A DNA stretch of 64,000 bases. It comes from Candidatus Multivorans sp. GTDB taxonomy: Bacteria; Acidobacteriota; Thermoanaerobaculia; Multivoradales; Multivoraceae. This document shows positions 47,611 through 57,963 of the stretch, piece by piece. A program made the translations under genes and the position numbers. Position 1 is the stretch's first letter. Each line of letters starts with the position of its first letter. Under the pieces are notes generated by a model. It was not told where the DNA came from. It did not search any database and saw nothing but the letters and a program-made list of their open reading frames with translations. The stretch lies in contig OZ251997.1 of NCBI GenBank assembly GCA_965247095.1, forward strand, positions 3,520,001 through 3,584,000, read 5' to 3'.

Positions 47611-47710
47611 TGGCGGAAGCGCATGGGAATCGAACCCACCCCCGGTGACGCATCACGCCCCGGACAACGGTTTTGAAGACCGCAGGAGGCACCAGCCCCC
47701 GAGCGCTTCC
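47611..47710 (-). tRNA. selC: tRNA-Sec (anticodon TCA)
   Basis: GGAAGCGC...CGGTCTTCAAAACCG...long variable arm...GGTTCGATTCC...GCGCTTCCGCCA; 8-bp acceptor stem. Confidence 0.93.
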
Positions 47711-47777
47711 GCCGGGCAGCATATCCTCCGCCCACCGGTTCAGCGCCGGACTCCACGACCGAAACAGGAGCGCAACG

Positions 47778-48380
47778 ATGAGGATCCTGACCGCCAACCC
47801 ACTGCCCCGCGTGCCGGCGCTCGGTCTGACGCTCCTGCTTCTGGCCTGCGGCCCCGACGCGCCCGCCCAGGGAAACGCCGGCGCCGAGGAGGGAGCGCGG
47901 GCCGTCGAGCTGTCGGCGCCGGTCGGCGCCAACGGCATCTCGATCGCACTGCCGGCGGCGTGGAACCGGGTCGAACCCCGATCGCAAATGCGCATGCTGG
48001 AGGCGGAGATTCCCGGTTCGAGCGGTTCGGGCGAGATCTCGATGTACTACTTCGGGCCCGGCGGCGGCGGCGGCGCGGCGGCGAACGTCGAACGCTGGAA
48101 GAGCCAGGTCGTCCTCGAAGCCGGCGCGCCCGAGCCCATCACCCAGAGCCGGGAGAGCAATGGCGTCCGCCGCATCTGGATCGAGCTCGAGGGCACGGTC
48201 AAGGCGAGCACGATCGGGAGCTTCCCGACCACGGACCAGCCGAACTTCGCGCTCTACGGCGCGGTCATCGAAGCGCCCGGCGGCCCCTGGTTCCTGCGCG
48301 CCGTCGGGCCCGCCGCGACGATGCGAGAGCAGCGTCAGGCGTTCCTGGCGATGCTCGACAGCGCCAGCCCGGAGGGCTGA
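47778..48380 (+). CDS. Hypothetical lipoprotein
   Basis: RBS AGGAG; lipobox LLLAC; GGGAAANVERWKSQ, GPWFLRAVGP. Confidence 0.75.
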   Translation: MRILTANPLPRVPALGLTLLLLACGPDAPAQGNAGAEEGARAVELSAPVGANGISIALPAAWNRVEPRSQMRMLEAEIPGSSGSGEISMYYFGPGGGGGAAANVERWKSQVVLEAGAPEPITQSRESNGVRRIWIELEGTVKASTIGSFPTTDQPNFALYGAVIEAPGGPWFLRAVGPAATMREQRQAFLAMLDSASPEG

Positions 48381-48409: not shown

Positions 48410-48485
<76 letters not shown>

Positions 48486-49974: not shown

Positions 49975-51249
49975 TCAATAGGAGATGATCTCGGCGATGC
50001 GGTGGTTCTGAATCTGGCGCCGGATGACCTCAGAGGAAACGAGGAACTCATGGGCGAAATCATCAATCTGTTCGCTATCCACGCGCTGGGTGTTGATTCG
50101 ACTATCTAGCGAAGCGGAGGGAGCAAGAAACTCCGCTGCGAATGCCCGCGCCCGCGCCTGAGAGTCGGTTGCCACCGCACTGAGCAGGCTGAACTCGGCT
50201 GTAGGCCGTCCGAGGAAATCACCGAGTGCCCGAGCTTGGAGGAACCGAGTGCCTGTCTGTCGGCGTCGTGCTATTACGCATTGAGGAGTATCGGCTCCAA
50301 CGAGTCCATGAAGTCGCGCAGTCGGTACTTCTCTTGACTCGTAAGGGATGGCCAGTGGGCCGTTGTCAAGGTCGATGGAGCCACCATTGGCCCCGATCCT
50401 TTCTCGTACTGCGCGCGCCGTCTCGTAGCCCCAAGTCCACGGTTCAGGACCGAAAGTCGGCAGTTGCAACCCTTGGCGGATTCTTGGCCACTCGCTGCTT
50501 CTCTGCACTGCTTGGACGGTCCTCCTGGCATCCTCCAGCCAGTTGGTGATGGATGTCAACTCCAAGCCCTTGGCTACGGCTAGTGCATCCTCTCGAACAG
50601 ACGCGTCCGTACCGTTCCAGAAGCCTATGATGAGTTCCGCGACGTGATCTTCCACGTCAAAGGGGTCAACTCCGAAGAGCGCAGCAGCTCGACTGAATTC
50701 GAGTTCGCTGTCGTCAAGGTTGTTGATGGCGCTCCAGTTGCGGCTAAGGTCTTCGGCGGCAACCGCAGTTTCGGCATCTTCCTGGAGCCGGTTCAGCACG
50801 GCATCAATAAGTTTGCGGAACTCGGCTTCAAGCTCCTCTCGTTCGACTACTAGGCTTCCCTCTTGGAGGAAAGCGACTTGGGCGTACTGTAGGTCACTCC
50901 GAACCCACCTCAGTTGCATTCGGGTTTCCGAAGCGGGAGTGATGGTGAGTTCGGGCAATGCGAATCCACTTCCGGCCCAAGCCAGATTGTGTCGGGACGC
51001 GAACTCCGGATCCTGCCCTTCCATGTCTGCGACTTCGTACCGAATGTGGCACCAGTTGGCAACCAACCAGTCGGCAATGTTGAATAGCGGGATGATGACC
51101 GATTCCCGGTAGGTGTTGGTCAGGCGGTCAACGACTGCCGTGATTGCTGTCTTGTCCGCCGTGATGCGGAGTTCAGCCATAGTGAGCTCAGAGAGCCTGT
51201 CGGGTGACGAACCTGGATCGAACCAGTCAAACTCGAAGCGCACGGTCAT
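49975..51249 (-). CDS. Protein with a C-terminal degenerate ImmA/IrrE (DUF955)-like domain
   Basis: TRFLQARALGDFL sits where RFxxAHELGH would be; QARARAFAAEFLAP; FAHEFLVSSEVIRRQIQN HTH-like end; codon usage is more AT-rich than the flanks. Confidence 0.65.
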   Translation of the reverse strand: MTVRFEFDWFDPGSSPDRLSELTMAELRITADKTAITAVVDRLTNTYRESVIIPLFNIADWLVANWCHIRYEVADMEGQDPEFASRHNLAWAGSGFALPELTITPASETRMQLRWVRSDLQYAQVAFLQEGSLVVEREELEAEFRKLIDAVLNRLQEDAETAVAAEDLSRNWSAINNLDDSELEFSRAAALFGVDPFDVEDHVAELIIGFWNGTDASVREDALAVAKGLELTSITNWLEDARRTVQAVQRSSEWPRIRQGLQLPTFGPEPWTWGYETARAVRERIGANGGSIDLDNGPLAIPYESREVPTARLHGLVGADTPQCVIARRRQTGTRFLQARALGDFLGRPTAEFSLLSAVATDSQARARAFAAEFLAPSASLDSRINTQRVDSEQIDDFAHEFLVSSEVIRRQIQNHRIAEIISY

Positions 51250-51638
51250 GGGAGTCCTCGTACTCCCTCGTTTCGCTCCAAGGGGTATCCGTGGTACTCG
51301 CCCGAACCAGGTGATCCTTGGCGAGCTTCAAAGATGATCTCGCCTTCGCGGCGCCAGGCGTATCTCGGGTAACCGGCTTCCCATGCACCGGTATTGCCGG
51401 AGCGGATGGCATCTCGTAGCCACAGCTCGACAAGGTCGGGGCGCTCGGTCAAGTGGACAGGACAGAGCGAGGCCGTGGGGCGAGATCGTGGCGGTCCTGC
51501 AGGCGTTGGAATGCTCCGGTGGTAGGGACTTTCAACGTACTTACAGGACTCGGCGACTCGTGCCAAGTCCTTGCCTTTTGGTGCGGGCTTCACCTTGCGC
51601 GCCCTCACGCTACCGCGCTGAAATCTCGGTGGTCTCAA
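51246..51638 (-). CDS. Small basic protein with C-terminal YHGYP motif (putative RNase-like toxin)
   Basis: YVESPYH, C, GYPRYAW, FEAR, GEYHGYPL; 4-bp overlap with the downstream gene. Confidence 0.6.
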   Translation of the reverse strand: MRPPRFQRGSVRARKVKPAPKGKDLARVAESCKYVESPYHRSIPTPAGPPRSRPTASLCPVHLTERPDLVELWLRDAIRSGNTGAWEAGYPRYAWRREGEIIFEARQGSPGSGEYHGYPLERNEGVRGLP

Positions 51639-53193: not shown

Positions 53194-53853
53194 CTATTCG
53201 GGCTGGGCTTCGTCCGCCGGCGGCTCGGGGATGGCCACTTCCGTTTCCCCGAGCAGCACCAACAACTGCGTAATGCGCCCGCGGCTGTCGCCGTCGTCGC
53301 CGGCCGGGTGCTGGGAGACCAGGGTGACGAGCCGGTTCTCCAGCGGATGCAGCATGAACAGCCGGATCTGCTGCTGGGTGACGGCGTCGTCGCCCAGGAA
53401 GCGTCCTCGGGTGTACCGGGCCGGCCCGAGCGGACCGATAATCTGCCGGCCCGCGAGGTGGACGCCTTCCGGCATCCCCTCGTAGAACGGCTTGTGGCCC
53501 TTCGCCACGTCGTCGATCTCGATGCCGAAATCGCTGGGCTCGCCGACTTCCAGCCAGATGCTGCCCGGCGGCCCGGCGGGCGTCTCCGTGGTCTCGAGTA
53601 GTTCGCAGGCGAGCTCGAACGGTAGCTCGCTCGGCTCGACGTGGGTGCAGCCGTCCGGCAGGGCGTTGAAGGCGAGCGCCTCCTCCTCCAGGACGATCCG
53701 CACCGGACCGGTTTCCTCCGGTTCCGCCGCGCTCTGACAGCCGATGAGTACAGTCGAGACACCTGTACAGACCAAGACGAAAACAGCGGTGCGGAACGCG
53801 GTGCCGAGGGGCCCGCGGCCCGGCGCAGCAGGGGTCAGGTGGCGCCTGAACAT
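53194..53853 (-). CDS. Hypothetical lipoprotein
   Basis: Hydrophobic segment ending LIGC; high-GC3 codon usage. Confidence 0.6.
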   Translation of the reverse strand: MFRRHLTPAAPGRGPLGTAFRTAVFVLVCTGVSTVLIGCQSAAEPEETGPVRIVLEEEALAFNALPDGCTHVEPSELPFELACELLETTETPAGPPGSIWLEVGEPSDFGIEIDDVAKGHKPFYEGMPEGVHLAGRQIIGPLGPARYTRGRFLGDDAVTQQQIRLFMLHPLENRLVTLVSQHPAGDDGDSRGRITQLLVLLGETEVAIPEPPADEAQPE

Positions 53854-53927: not shown

Positions 53928-55256
53928 GTGGATAGACCGATCGCACGCGTTCTCAACTTGATCGACGACGGCGAACAACGCCTGTGGAACCTGACGCCGG
54001 ACGAGGCCCGGAAACGGCTGCTGCGCGGCCCCGAGGCGGTCCTGGGCATCGACGGGTCGTTCGCGCTCGCCGCCCGCCGGGGAGTGGACATCGTCATGGC
54101 CCGCAGTCTCGACCGGCCGATGCGCTACTTCCTGGCCAAGGAGTCCTCCGGGCCGATGCTGGTCATCGCCCAGCGCATCGACGAGATCAGGGACTGTCTC
54201 GCTGGCGAGGGGTATCTCGACCAGTTCCACCCCACCTACACGCGGATGGTCCCGGCGCACCACGCCACGACGCTGCGCCTGATCGGCTGCCCCGACCCTA
54301 ACCCGACCCACGAGCGCTTCTTCGATCCGCCGCGCGGCACGTTGCCGCCGGATCTCGACCTGATCGGCGAGCGCTACGTCGAGGCCCTGATGTTCGAGCT
54401 CCGCGGCTGGCTGGCCGCCATGCCGCCGGAGCGGGCGCGGGCGCCGATCGGGGTCTGCTTCTCCGGCGGCATCGACAGCGGCGCCGTGCTGGTGGCGCTC
54501 AACCACGCTTTGCTCGAGGGCGGTTCGAGCGCCGCCCGGCTCAAGGCGTTCACGCTCCGGGTCGGTGACGGCGCCGGCGACGCCGCCCAGGCGCGCGAGT
54601 TCCTTCGGCGCGTGGACCTCGAGATGCTGGGCGAGGAGATCGCGGCCGGCGCCGAGGCGGTCGATCCGCTGCGGGCGGTCGAGGTGATCGAGGACTACAA
54701 GCCGCTCGACGTCGAGTGCGCCGCCGTCGGCCTGGCCCTGCTGCGCGGCATTCGGGCGCGCTATCCGGACTGGCGGCTCCTGGTGGACGGCGACGGTGGC
54801 GACGAGAACCTGAAGGACTACCCGCTGGAGGAGAACCACGAGCTGACGATCACCAGCGTCGTGGGCAACTCGATGCTCTACCAGGAGGGTTGGGGCATAG
54901 GCATGATCAAGCACTCCCAGACCTACTCGGGCGGCCTGGGGCGGGCCACCGTCCGCACCCACGCGCCAGCCCGGCTGCTCGGCTTCGAAGGCTTCAGTCC
55001 CTTCACCCGGCCGTCCGTGATCGCGGTGGCCGAGGCGATCCCGTTCGACACGCTGGTCGGCAGCTCGCACGAGACCCTGTACGAGCTCAAGGGCGAAGTC
55101 GTGCGGCGGGGCATGAAGCGGGTGCTCGGCATCGACTTCCCGGTCTTCCCCAAGCGCCGCTTCCAGGAGGGCGCGGCGTCGGAGGACGTGTTCGCCGCCG
55201 CCTTCGACCGTCCGCCCGAGCAGTACCGCCGCCACTTCCAGTCGCTCTACGGGTAG
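53928..55256 (+). CDS. Asparagine-synthase-related adenylating enzyme lacking the N-terminal catalytic Cys
   Basis: PP-loop FSGGIDSG, DGDGGDE, SPF, PKRRFQEG; RBS GGAGG. Confidence 0.8.
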   Translation: MDRPIARVLNLIDDGEQRLWNLTPDEARKRLLRGPEAVLGIDGSFALAARRGVDIVMARSLDRPMRYFLAKESSGPMLVIAQRIDEIRDCLAGEGYLDQFHPTYTRMVPAHHATTLRLIGCPDPNPTHERFFDPPRGTLPPDLDLIGERYVEALMFELRGWLAAMPPERARAPIGVCFSGGIDSGAVLVALNHALLEGGSSAARLKAFTLRVGDGAGDAAQAREFLRRVDLEMLGEEIAAGAEAVDPLRAVEVIEDYKPLDVECAAVGLALLRGIRARYPDWRLLVDGDGGDENLKDYPLEENHELTITSVVGNSMLYQEGWGIGMIKHSQTYSGGLGRATVRTHAPARLLGFEGFSPFTRPSVIAVAEAIPFDTLVGSSHETLYELKGEVVRRGMKRVLGIDFPVFPKRRFQEGAASEDVFAAAFDRPPEQYRRHFQSLYG

Positions 55257-55283
55257 CGGTTCCGGCTGGACCGGGGAGCGGGA

Positions 55284-56273
55284 ATGGGAAAGGGGTCCGA
55301 CGAGGCGCCGGGATTCGATCCGGCCGCCGTTCGGGCGCTTCGTCCGCCGAAGCCGGTGCTCGACCCCTGGCGGCCCCAGGGCGTGACGGTCGAGCTGGAG
55401 CGAGAGCCCGACGGTGCGCTCCGTGGGTCGGCGACCGTGTTCCTGACCGGGGCCGAGTGCCCGTTCACCTGCGTGTTCTGCGACCTGTGGCGGTACACCG
55501 CCTCTGGACCGACGCCGGAGGGAGCGCTGCCGGCGCAGTTGCGATCGGCCCTGGAACGGCTTCCCGGTCTTCTCAGTGAGGCCGGTCTCGACCGCTGCGA
55601 CCGGCTCAAGCTCTACAACGCGAGCAACTTCTTCGAGCCGCGCGCGGTGCCGGAGGCGGACCTGGAACCGATCGCGCGGCTTGCCGACGGCTTCGATCGG
55701 GTAGTCGTCGAGTGCCATCCGCGCCTCGTGGACGGCCGGGTGCGGCGCTTCGCCGACCGGCTCGAAGGTCGGCTGGAGGTGGCGATGGGCCTGGAGACGG
55801 TGCACCCGCAAGCCCTGCCGCGGCTCGGCAAGCAGTTGACGCTGGACCAGTTCGACCGGGCCGCGGCGCGTCTGCTCGAGGAGGGCATCGACCTGCGGGC
55901 GTTCGTGCTCGTGGGCGTGCCGTTCGTGCCGGCGGAGGAGCAGGCGCAGTGGGCTGCCGCGAGTGTGCGACACGCGGCGAGGGCCGGCGCCCGGTCGGTG
56001 GCGCTGATTCCGGTGCGGGGCGGCAACGGGGAACTGGAGCGGCTCGAGCGGCTCGGCTGGTTCGAGCCTCCCGACCTGGCCCTGGTGGGGGAGTCGCTGG
56101 CGTGCGGGCTCGAGACGGTCGCTCGGAGGGCGGCGGTGCAGGTCGACCCCTGGGATCTCGACCGCATCGCTTCGACCTGCGGCGCCTGCCGGGCCTCCCG
56201 CATCCAGGCGATCCGGGAGATGAACCGCACCGGCGAACCGCGGCGGACGGCGTGCGATGACTGCGGCGACTAG
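55284..56273 (+). CDS. Radical SAM protein, RaSEA/TIGR01210-like
   Basis: CPFTCVFC (CxxxCxxC), LKLYNASNFF, VVECHP, EVAMGLET, C-terminal CGAC...CDDC. Confidence 0.8.
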   Translation: MGKGSDEAPGFDPAAVRALRPPKPVLDPWRPQGVTVELEREPDGALRGSATVFLTGAECPFTCVFCDLWRYTASGPTPEGALPAQLRSALERLPGLLSEAGLDRCDRLKLYNASNFFEPRAVPEADLEPIARLADGFDRVVVECHPRLVDGRVRRFADRLEGRLEVAMGLETVHPQALPRLGKQLTLDQFDRAAARLLEEGIDLRAFVLVGVPFVPAEEQAQWAAASVRHAARAGARSVALIPVRGGNGELERLERLGWFEPPDLALVGESLACGLETVARRAAVQVDPWDLDRIASTCGACRASRIQAIREMNRTGEPRRTACDDCGD

Positions 56274-57867
56274 CGCGGCAGAACGCCGCGAGATCGTGAT
56301 CGCCGGCGGGGGGTTCGCCGGGTCCATCCTGGCGCGAGCACTCCATGCCGACGGCCGCGACGTGCTGCTGCTCGAGCGCGGCCGCCACCCGCGGTTCGCG
56401 CTCGGCGAGTCGTCCACGCCGCTGGCCAACCTGGCCCTGGAGCGGCTGGCGGTCCACTACCGCTTTGAGGATCTGTGGACGCTGGCCGCCCACGGCCGCT
56501 GGCGGCGCGGGCTGCCCGAGGTCGGCGGGGGATTGAAGCGGGGCTTCTGCTTCTACTCCCACCGTCCGGGCCAGGCCTTCATGCCGGATGCCGCCGGCGG
56601 TCGCCGCCTGGTCGTCGCCGCGTCGCCGGACGACGATGCCGCCGACAACCAGTGGCTGCGCGCGGATGTGGACCGCTTCCTGTTCGAGCGCGCCCGGGCC
56701 GAGGGCGTGGACTGCCGGGAGGAAACGGCGGTCGAGGTGGTCTCGACGCCGGACGGCCCGCGAGGGGGACCGGTCCGGATCCGGGCCGGCGGCCGCGTCG
56801 TCGAGGCCGGCCTCCTGGTCGACGCGACCGGCGGATCGCCACTCGCCGAACAGTTGGGCGCCTGCTCGCTGCCGCCGCGGCTGCAGACGACCCTGGTGTA
56901 CTCGCATTTCGACGGCATCGCTCCCTTCGACCGCGGCGACGACTGGCCGGATTCGCCCTTTGGCGAGCGCTGGAGCGCCGCCCACCACCTGCTGGAGGAG
57001 GGTTGGATGTACCAGCTCCGCTTCGACGACGGTTCGGTGAGCGCCGGCGTCCTGCTCCCCGAGGACCGGCCCGCGGCCGCCGGCGCCCTCGAGCTCCTGG
57101 CCGCCGCCGGCTCAGGGGATCGCGCCGCCGCCGGTTCCGCCTTCGCCTCCCTGCTCGATCGCTACCCGTCGCTGTCGCGCCAGTTCGCCGAGCACCAGCC
57201 TCTACGGGACTTGGAGTCGCGCTCCGGCGTTGCCTACCGCCGCGACCGGGCCGTGGGTCCGGGCTGGCTGCTTCTGCCCCACAGTTACGCCTTCGCCGAC
57301 CCCATGTTCTCGACCGGCATCGCCTGGAGCCTGCTCGCCGTCGAGCGGATCGCCGGCCTCTGCAGCGGCGGTTTGCCCGCGGCGGGCGATCTCGACCGCT
57401 ACGGCCGGCTGCTGGCCGTCGAGGCGGACCACATCGACCGGCTGCTGGCCGCCGCCTACCGCCTGATGCCGGGCATGGAGCGCTTCACTGCCGCCGCGAT
57501 GGCCTACTTCGCGGCTGCGAGCTTCGACGAACTGCGCCAGCGGCTGCTCGACCCTCCGAACGAGGGCTGGTGCTGGCAGGGCTTCCTGGGCGCCGATGAC
57601 GCGCTCCGCCGCGGGCTGTTCGAGGAACTCGACGAGCGCTCGGCCAACCCCGCGGCGGCCCGGAAGCTGACGGACTGGATCGGGCCCGCGATCGAACCCC
57701 GCAACCTGATCGGCCTAGACGACCCGCGTCGCCGCAACGTCTACCCGGTCGACCTGGCGGGCATGGAGCGGCGACAGGAACAGATCGCGGCCGGTCTCGA
57801 AGTGGCGCCGGCGGAGCTCCGGCGGCGCTGGTCTCGGTTGCGGAGTCCGGACCGGATGCCGGGCTAG
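56257..57867 (+). CDS. Flavin-dependent halogenase-like enzyme
   Basis: GGGFAG, HPRFALGESSTP, conserved Lys in LKRGF, RADVD, DATG, FADPMFSTG; WxWxIP replaced by WMYQLRF. Confidence 0.75.
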   Translation: MTAATSAAERREIVIAGGGFAGSILARALHADGRDVLLLERGRHPRFALGESSTPLANLALERLAVHYRFEDLWTLAAHGRWRRGLPEVGGGLKRGFCFYSHRPGQAFMPDAAGGRRLVVAASPDDDAADNQWLRADVDRFLFERARAEGVDCREETAVEVVSTPDGPRGGPVRIRAGGRVVEAGLLVDATGGSPLAEQLGACSLPPRLQTTLVYSHFDGIAPFDRGDDWPDSPFGERWSAAHHLLEEGWMYQLRFDDGSVSAGVLLPEDRPAAAGALELLAAAGSGDRAAAGSAFASLLDRYPSLSRQFAEHQPLRDLESRSGVAYRRDRAVGPGWLLLPHSYAFADPMFSTGIAWSLLAVERIAGLCSGGLPAAGDLDRYGRLLAVEADHIDRLLAAAYRLMPGMERFTAAAMAYFAAASFDELRQRLLDPPNEGWCWQGFLGADDALRRGLFEELDERSANPAAARKLTDWIGPAIEPRNLIGLDDPRRRNVYPVDLAGMERRQEQIAAGLEVAPAELRRRWSRLRSPDRMPG

Positions 57868-57902: not shown

Positions 57903-57963
57903 CGTGTGGCGCGACCCGCGCCACACGCGAACCACTCCGTGGGCCCGTCATCGGGCGCACGGA
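57903..57963. repeat. Two adjacent hairpins including REP-like palindrome copy 2 (57936-57963)
   Basis: CGTGTGGCGCG-ACC-CGCGCCACACG then TCCGTGGGCCCG-TCAT-CGGGCGCACGGA, between convergent genes. Confidence 0.7.

Follow-up and report, generated by a model that had tools for sequence, protein, structure and literature searches.

What would a bacterium make with an amide-forming ligase, a radical enzyme and a halogenase-type flavoprotein encoded side by side in one small operon? The question is raised by positions 53928-57867 on the plus strand of a 64,000-nucleotide stretch of Candidatus Multivorans sp. (phylum Acidobacteriota; contig OZ251997.1, positions 3,520,001 to 3,584,000), referred to here as the window, whose G+C content is about 70%. 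A preliminary description, made from the sequence and its open reading frames, had read this locus as three tightly spaced or overlapping genes for an asparagine-synthase-like ligase without an amidotransferase, a radical S-adenosylmethionine (SAM) enzyme and a flavin-halogenase-like enzyme, and had known of no pathway that combines the three. Our analysis shows that the three genes are real, co-oriented, coupled and co-inherited, that their active-site motifs are intact and that the glutaminase half of the ligase is absent. The cassette is a real, unexplained orphan operon, for which no described pathway accounts.

The gene identities proposed at the outset hold, with the Pfam profiles Asn_synthase, Radical_SAM and Trp_halogenase all matching over their cut-offs, and the motifs listed at that time (the PP-loop of the ligase, the CxxxCxxC and C-terminal cysteine pairs of the radical SAM protein, and the flavin adenine dinucleotide (FAD) and lysine motifs and WMYQLRF of the flavoprotein) are all present at verified coordinates (Table 1). 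Third-position GC lies between 0.88 and 0.93 across the three reading frames, a level typical of real genes. The tight packing is borne out by a gap of 27 nucleotides between the first two genes and an overlap of 17 nucleotides between the second and the third. The first gene opens with a GTG start codon that has GGAGGA 7 nucleotides upstream, and Shine-Dalgarno-like purine runs precede the starts of both the first and the second gene. The description had also let the genes end at hairpins, which is correct for the end of the operon and incorrect for the junction of the first two genes, as an inverted-repeat search found no hairpin there and two beyond the third gene (I1, 57903-57927, with an 11-bp stem matched at 100%, and I3, 57936-57963, with a 12-bp stem matched at 92%). 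A consensus terminator scan returned no T-tract terminator after the operon, and because the hairpins lack such a tract they are at most putative terminators.

In order to see how far the arrangement is kept, we used a scan of one genome per species, which gave at least 599 pattern matches. At least 472 of these encode relatives of the radical SAM protein, and the best 80 loci among them were compared. In all 80 the radical SAM gene is preceded on the same strand by that of the ligase. The estimated gap between the two is 150 nucleotides or less in 72 loci, with a median of -9 nucleotides, and the largest gaps are 4.3 kb (locus L019) and 0.85 kb (L069). A flavoprotein gene follows directly in 72 of the 80. 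Conserved three-gene synteny was the check that the preliminary description had suggested, and it had allowed that the genes might not be co-conserved; all three genes stand together in 72 of the 80 loci and the first two in every one. That the three are mere neighbours without a shared function is a reading that this synteny brings close to refuted, since order and orientation are kept in two phyla while the other neighbours change, the gene ends overlap, and rare fusions join both adjacent pairs.

Eight of the 80 loci lack an adjacent flavoprotein gene; two of these end at a contig edge, and six have at least 1.2 kb of downstream sequence without one. When five of the six corresponding genomes were searched, an orthologue was found elsewhere in two and none in three, in genomes whose completeness is not reported. 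The two unlinked orthologues (in G302 and G304) adjoin htpG, mscL and Uma2 genes, a context that is uninformative. A tree of the ligase was built from 76 rows, four loci with partial matches being left out, and in it four of the loci without a flavoprotein share one group. The two-gene core of ligase and radical SAM enzyme works alone in one lineage. Nineteen of the 20 Gemmatimonadota rows form one starred clade of the same tree, on which the phylum label changes 3 times compared with 18.8 times when shuffled. This grouping and the few label changes indicate that the cassette is mostly inherited within lineages.

Our own evidence places the cassette in Acidobacteriota and Gemmatimonadota, and a protein atlas hints at relatives in Planctomycetota, Verrucomicrobiota and Myxococcota. 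Within the window's own phylum the ligase is carried by 26 of 301 sampled species genomes, a count that includes the unpublished genome G024, and a profile of ligase subfamilies at 30-36% identity recovers the same 26 genomes; a metagenome scan for these subfamilies gave 5 weak, unrelated asparagine synthetase (AS) matches. One locus, L071 (JAHZIX010000039.1), is titled Deltaproteobacteria and was considered as evidence of a third phylum. This was rejected, as GTDB assigns its genome to the window's own phylum, in a tally that includes the unpublished genome G332. Beside the cassette, L071 carries holB, tmk and a DsbA-like gene, as the window does.

No other conserved neighbour was found in the 80 loci beyond the window's own family, and FG-GAP/ASPIC and GH97 genes recur near the cassette in the Gemmatimonadota loci only. 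Eight fused long forms were found, each a single sequence, which join ligase to radical SAM protein or radical SAM protein to flavoprotein, with one that carries an FHA domain; none of the eight adds a substrate-binding domain, and sequencing errors where gene ends overlap could account for them. The FHA form (P0394, 661 amino acids, from one metagenome contig) joins a radical SAM relative to FHA domains (PF00498, PF16697) and may be a gene-calling artefact.

The ligase has many relatives and yet its family is isolated: over 8000 proteins in databases are close to it, while among 1.84 billion cluster representatives just 684 match it (E up to 0.001). PADLOC has no match for any of the three proteins, PHROGs has a single borderline one (ligase to phrog_16728, E 0.0009, 19.1 bits, function unannotated), and a plasmid collection has none at the operon. 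No precursor peptide, carrier protein, transporter, riboswitch or defence system was found at or around the cassette. A full-text literature search, with most subscription journals outside its reach, returned no paper on this gene combination; one preprint that was considered (10.64898/2026.08.03.742642) concerns sponge clusters with a halogenase and AMP-binding enzymes, makes no mention of asparagine synthase and was set aside. The earlier statement that no described pathway joins the three enzymes thus survives comparison with the literature, NCBIfam, PADLOC and PHROGs.

The first clue to function comes from what the ligase keeps and what it has lost. Its Pfam Asn_synthase match (38.7 bits, cut-off 21) spans residues 169-301, the PP-loop core only, and its score against the glutamine-hydrolysing asparagine synthetase B family (TIGR01536) is 34.9 bits, below the cut-off of 267.1. 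No solved structure was matched by sequence. An AlphaFold 2 (AF2) model built from 27 relatives reached a predicted local distance difference test score (pLDDT) of 91, and its best Foldseek match is beta-lactam synthetase (1jgt_A, E 1.6e-12, TMq 0.58, 16% identity), followed by human ASNS, carbapenam synthetase (1q19_A, E 5e-11), TsnB9 and E. coli AsnB. The hhalign alignment to AsnB (probability 96.9) pairs ligase residues 29-417 with AsnB residues 105-458, so that residues 1-104 of AsnB have no counterpart. The first hundred residues of AsnB house the N-terminal cysteine and the glutamine pocket of its glutaminase domain. None of 24 aligned N-termini of the ligase family has a cysteine directly after the initial methionine, and the view of the ligase as lacking an amidotransferase is thereby upheld.

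The synthetase site is retained. Five PP-loop residues (S179, G180, G181, D183 and S184) are invariant in all 27 aligned relatives, as are G288, G290, G291, E293, Y298 and K409; the equivalents of AsnB D351, E352, Y357 and K449 are kept, and AsnB E348 is replaced by aspartate. In the N-terminal half-domain R59, R66, F100, Y104 and P109 are also invariant across the 27 sequences, which indicates that this half-domain is under selection and is not a mere remnant. Judged by these residues, the ligase is expected to activate a carboxylate by adenylation and to produce an amide, and to be unable to generate its own ammonia.

The fold raises the question of whether the ligase is a cyclase, making a lactam in the manner of beta-lactam or carbapenam synthetase while the radical SAM enzyme and the flavoenzyme tailor the ring by C-C or C-H chemistry and halogenation. 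Beta-lactam synthetase is the best fold match and carbapenam synthetase ranks high; the ligase shares with both a PP-loop adenylation domain behind a non-catalytic N-terminal domain, the available part of PMC13060819 names lactam-making members of the AS family, and CtcP and PltM, the closest solved relatives of the flavoprotein, act on free small molecules. Against this reading, identity to these synthetases is 11-17% (16% to beta-lactam synthetase) and the ligase is missing the equivalent of AsnB 1-104. The synthetases form their lactams intramolecularly on carboxyethyl-arginine or carboxymethyl-proline substrates. No other clavulanate or carbapenem genes lie nearby in the window or the 80 loci, no lactam-precursor gene (crotonase, thiamine enzyme, nonribosomal peptide synthetase or polyketide synthase) is conserved near the cassette, and a RaSEA-type partner that is obligate in 80 of 80 loci is left unexplained. 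We consider a lactam cyclase unlikely.

That partner is the second clue. The radical SAM protein scores just above the Pfam Radical_SAM cut-off (29.9 against 29.5 bits), and its best NCBIfam match is RaSEA (TIGR01210), at 41.2 bits (E 1.1e-10) against a cut-off of 212.15, with residues 49-314 aligned to profile positions 15-280 of 313, near the whole length. MnmL/YtqA (TIGR01212) comes second and is weak (E 0.004). Its AF2 model (pLDDT 93) finds Elp3 structures first in Foldseek (5l7l at 5.1e-08, then 8pty_C and 6ia6), with many radical SAM folds ranking close behind, and hhalign against E. coli YhcC gives a probability of 50 over 108 columns. No SPASM-type match was found in Pfam or NCBIfam. 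The three cysteines of the CxxxCxxC motif are invariant in 21 of 21 aligned relatives; in the same 21 sequences C302, C324 and C327 of the C-terminal cysteine pairs show no variation, and conservation of C299 is at least 90%. These pairs are likely to form a zinc ribbon or to hold an auxiliary cluster, the identity of the metal being a matter of prediction. Judged by sequence comparison, the protein is related distantly to the RaSEA/Elp3 group and stands outside every named family. The label RaSEA-like given to it in the preliminary description is thus apt for distant homology and too strong for family membership.

The relatives of this protein argue for an RNA substrate. Those that have been characterised and that we found (RaSEA, YhcC/MnmL and Elp3) all act on tRNA, and one could envisage a hypermodification of tRNA or rRNA in which a modified base with a carboxyl group would be extended by the ligase, trimmed on the RNA by the RaSEA/Elp3-type enzyme, and oxidised or halogenated by the flavoenzyme. 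Consistent with this, conservation of the ligase is unusually high: its identity to the more distant loci (L037-L080) is 60-70%, where the radical SAM protein stands at 49-62% and the flavoprotein at 42-52%. Several observations speak against it: no RNA-binding domain of the PUA, THUMP or TRAM kind occurs in the three proteins or in the eight fused forms, all three proteins are acidic, the cassette is found in just 26 of the 301 sampled species of the phylum, and the nearest relatives of the flavoprotein act on free phenols.

One specific nucleoside idea, a link to 7-deazaguanines, was at first suggested by the window's genome. It encodes tgt about 1.3 kb past the end of the window (G000:C1:3585330-3586376), and queA and a PTPS protein are also present; it has no QueF, and its best QueC match is a 21.6-bit PP-loop match. 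With TGT and QueA present and QueC and QueF missing, the cassette could have been a replacement route to 7-deazaguanines. As a general role this was rejected: a true QueC (E about 1e-70) is present in 16 of 24 other carriers, and the eight that lack one belong to the window's own order, in which 7-8 other carrier genomes are without it. The gene set of the window's genome is the pattern of a queuosine-precursor scavenger. We regard RNA hypermodification as distinctly unlikely.

The third protein extends the possible chemistry to an electron-rich ring. Its Pfam Trp_halogenase match (54 bits) is far above the cut-off of 21, and the best solved relatives by sequence (phmmer) are the tetracycline 7-halogenase CtcP (7xgb, 4e-32) and PltM (1.9e-27). 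With both it shares the GxGxxG motif, the catalytic lysine and the FxDPxFSxG stretch. Lys94, invariant in 19 of 19 relatives, falls in the phmmer alignment on residue 99 of the 7xgb chain, which is Lys98 of CtcP, the residue named as its catalytic lysine in the available text of PMC12400496. The alignment to CtcP and PltM ends at residue 358-366 of 536, so that the C-terminal, substrate-side region is unrelated, and no flavin reductase gene lies inside the cassette. The canonical halogenase motif has the form WxWxIP. At this site CtcP reads GWMWIIPF and relatives of the flavoprotein show W-[MLA]-[YW]-x-L-[PR] (WLWVLP in L054, WMYVLP in L049 and WMYSLR among them), the first tryptophan and the leucine being invariant and the second tryptophan and the proline variable. 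Judged by these motifs, halogenation and hydroxylation are both possible activities.

The flavoprotein also raises the possibility of a peptide substrate. Its top NCBIfam match is QhpG (NF049967), which the accessible part of PMC7876137 describes as a halogenase-fold monooxygenase whose peptide substrate carries cross-links made by a radical SAM enzyme, and AS-like enzymes are listed in the portion of PMC13060819 available as cyclising lasso peptides and as amidating or nitrilating peptide C-termini. The operon could then mature a ribosomal peptide or protein-derived cofactor whose precursor is encoded elsewhere, with the ligase as lasso cyclase or C-terminal amidase and the other two as a QhpD/QhpG-like pair. 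The QhpG score of 60.8 bits is far below the cut-off of 240, the QhpG structure 7CTQ is absent among the matches of the flavoprotein to PDB sequences at E up to 1, and there are no qhpC or qhpD neighbours near the cassette in the window. For the radical SAM protein a SPASM-type match is missing, and the flanks, 74 nucleotides upstream and a hairpin-filled 185 nucleotides downstream, leave no room for a precursor gene. Unlike in a lasso peptide cluster, neither Pfam nor inspection of the flanks placed a precursor peptide, leader protease or RiPP recognition element (RRE; a RiPP is a peptide made on the ribosome and modified after translation) beside the ligase, and the loci share no conserved RRE, PqqD, protease or transporter gene next to the cassette. 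Peptide maturation is in our view highly improbable.

The chemistry suggested in the preliminary description (amide ligation, radical cleavage, and halogenation or oxidation, in a small-molecule or nucleoside/tRNA modification route) is a prediction from family membership. Taking the three proteins together, we tentatively propose that the operon builds or modifies one compound by a 'donor-and-trim' route, a reading by analogy that we regard as possible. In a first step the ligase would adenylate a carboxylate of the substrate and couple it to an amine, the simplest candidate being an amino acid's amino group; as it lacks a glutaminase site, its amine partner would be something other than ammonia derived from glutamine. 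In a second step modelled on RaSEA, the radical SAM enzyme would abstract a hydrogen from the attached donor and break the donor's C-N bond, so that a primary amide or amidine would be left on the substrate and the donor's carbon skeleton released. Finally, the lysine-bearing flavoenzyme would halogenate or hydroxylate an electron-rich ring of the same scaffold, a step that would be dispensable in one lineage. The strongest constraint behind this proposal is the obligate pairing of a ligase incapable of using glutamine as its ammonia source with a RaSEA-type enzyme.

The closest precedent is the ArcS-RaSEA pair of Euryarchaeota. According to the available text of PMC11298593, ArcS uses lysine and not NH4+, glutamine or asparagine, and adds it to preQ0; RaSEA converts the resulting preQ0-Lys to archaeosine, an amidine, and ArcS is active only when complexed with RaSEA. 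The proposed likeness is thus an obligate pair of an amino-acid-attaching enzyme and a small CxxxCxxC radical SAM trimmer. The two systems differ in that the operon pairs its radical SAM protein with an ATP-dependent AS-type ligase in place of an ArcTGT-like ArcS, that the host is bacterial, that a flavoprotein is added, and that by Pfam the window's genome has no QueC or QueF. YhcC/MnmL (TIGR01212) and Elp3 (TIGR01211) share the fold neighbourhood, and the accessible part of a preprint on YhcC/MnmL (10.64898/2026.05.18.725915) reports that this enzyme takes a carboxymethyl group off a tRNA amine, an N-dealkylation that resembles the proposed trimming; the homology is remote, and unlike Elp3 the radical SAM protein has no KAT domain. 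For the combination of halogenation and amidation, the portion of PMC12715798 available offers a precedent in ammosamide biosynthesis, where the FAD halogenase Amm3 and the putative asparagine synthetase Amm20 give a chlorinated primary amide by AS-type amidation of an aromatic acid. There the cluster is large and RiPP-derived, Amm20 is a putative amidotransferase and a RaSEA-type enzyme is absent; a comparison of gene context found no homology.

Several points weigh against the donor-and-trim proposal. The weak RaSEA score (41 against 212) and the weak alignment to YhcC make the transfer of chemistry a long reach, the sequence of steps is guesswork, and substrate, donor and product are all arrived at by analogy. 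A ligase without a glutaminase could simply use free ammonia, as the AS-type enzyme PesC can according to the accessible text of PMC13060819, or could close a ring intramolecularly, as its best fold match, beta-lactam synthetase, does. The degenerate WxWxIP motif makes hydroxylation an alternative to halogenation, and the isoelectric points (pI) of the three proteins, all between 5.3 and 5.7, are acidic and lend no support to an RNA substrate. A further suggestion, with the flavoprotein as an oxygen-dependent counterpart to the radical SAM step, was dropped for want of support: heme-copper oxidase genes are present in all five searched genomes without an adjacent flavoprotein, including the three without any orthologue.

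The relatives of the flavoprotein and of the ligase, together with the acidic pI values, favour a free small molecule as substrate, those of the radical SAM protein favour RNA, and a peptide substrate would need a precursor gene elsewhere. Within the proposal we would give a free small aromatic or heteroaromatic acid about an even chance, an RNA nucleoside a small one and a peptide or protein one smaller still; a small aromatic metabolite is more likely than tRNA. Taken furthest, the ligase and the radical SAM enzyme would be a bacterial, ATP-driven counterpart of ArcS-RaSEA and a general glutamine-independent route to primary amides and amidines, which in its boldest form would have an RNA nucleobase as its target and a flavoenzyme that halogenates it; this we hold to be a long shot.

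Table 1. Coordinates, within the window, of the operon genes, their diagnostic motifs and the downstream hairpins
Feature	Position	Strand	Description
Gene 1 (P0001)	53928-55256	+	asparagine-synthetase-like ATP-dependent ligase, 442 aa, without glutaminase site
PP-loop SGGIDS, residues 179-184	54462-54479	+	gene 1; coordinates verified
DGDGGDE, residues 287-293	54786-54806	+	gene 1; aligned to AsnB SGEGSDE 346-352 (hhalign)
Y298	54819-54821	+	gene 1; aligned to AsnB Y357 (hhalign)
K409	55152-55154	+	gene 1; aligned to AsnB K449 (hhalign)
Gene 2 (P0002)	55284-56273	+	radical SAM enzyme, 329 aa, distant RaSEA/Elp3 relative
CPFTCVFC (CxxxCxxC; C59, C63, C66)	55458-55481	+	gene 2; coordinates verified
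C-terminal CxxC...CxxC (C299, C302, C324, C327)	56178-56264	+	gene 2; coordinates verified
Gene 3 (P0003)	56257-57867	+	flavin-dependent-halogenase-type flavoprotein, 536 aa
GGGFAG (GxGxxG), residues 17-22	56305-56322	+	gene 3; coordinates verified
Lys94 in GLKRGF	56536-56538	+	gene 3; aligned to CtcP catalytic lysine
WMYQLRF, degenerate WxWxIP	57004-57024	+	gene 3; aligned to CtcP GWMWIIPF
Two GC-rich hairpins	57903-57963	.	inside 185-nt gap before convergent holB

The surroundings of the operon can be described briefly. Downstream of the 185-nucleotide gap lie convergent holB and then tmk. Upstream, the 74 nucleotides before the first gene separate it from a divergent gene on the minus strand (53194-53853), which encodes a probable lipoprotein of 219 amino acids with a signal peptide ending in LIGC, a lipobox. 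It has no family match in Pfam, PADLOC or PHROGs and occurs beside the cassette within the window's family only (36 loci, 42-93% identity), with one further weak match, at 29%, in L069. No riboswitch or other RNA element was found at the operon, the Rfam matches being two tRNA genes elsewhere in the window: a selenocysteine tRNA gene at 47615-47710 on the minus strand (74.1 bits) and a second tRNA gene at 48413-48485, also on the minus strand. As a plus-strand reading frame at 47673-48380 overlaps the selenocysteine tRNA gene, its start may be miscalled. A segment at 49975-51638 on the minus strand has a low GC content (0.59 compared with about 0.70) and two reading frames (424 and 130 amino acids) without a Pfam match, which recur in just one (L017) of the 80 loci compared. 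The segment lies between moeA and pilC and is probably a recent insertion.

This work contributes the mapping of residues onto AsnB and of Lys94 onto Lys98 of CtcP, the comparison with YhcC, the ligase tree, and two tests that failed, on QueC and on oxygen. The cassette is common, its genes being kept together by hundreds of uncultured bacteria from soil, water and sponges. Were the donor-and-trim proposal true, the logic of archaeosine synthesis would be a general enzymatic strategy used in bacteria too, and a function would be in hand for many proteins from soil, wastewater and sponge metagenomes annotated as 'asparagine synthase-related' or 'radical SAM'. If its boldest form held, the product would be the first enzymatically halogenated RNA nucleoside. 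And if many Acidobacteriota and Gemmatimonadota used the cassette to make a halogenated metabolite, this would be an organohalogen of natural origin and wide occurrence.

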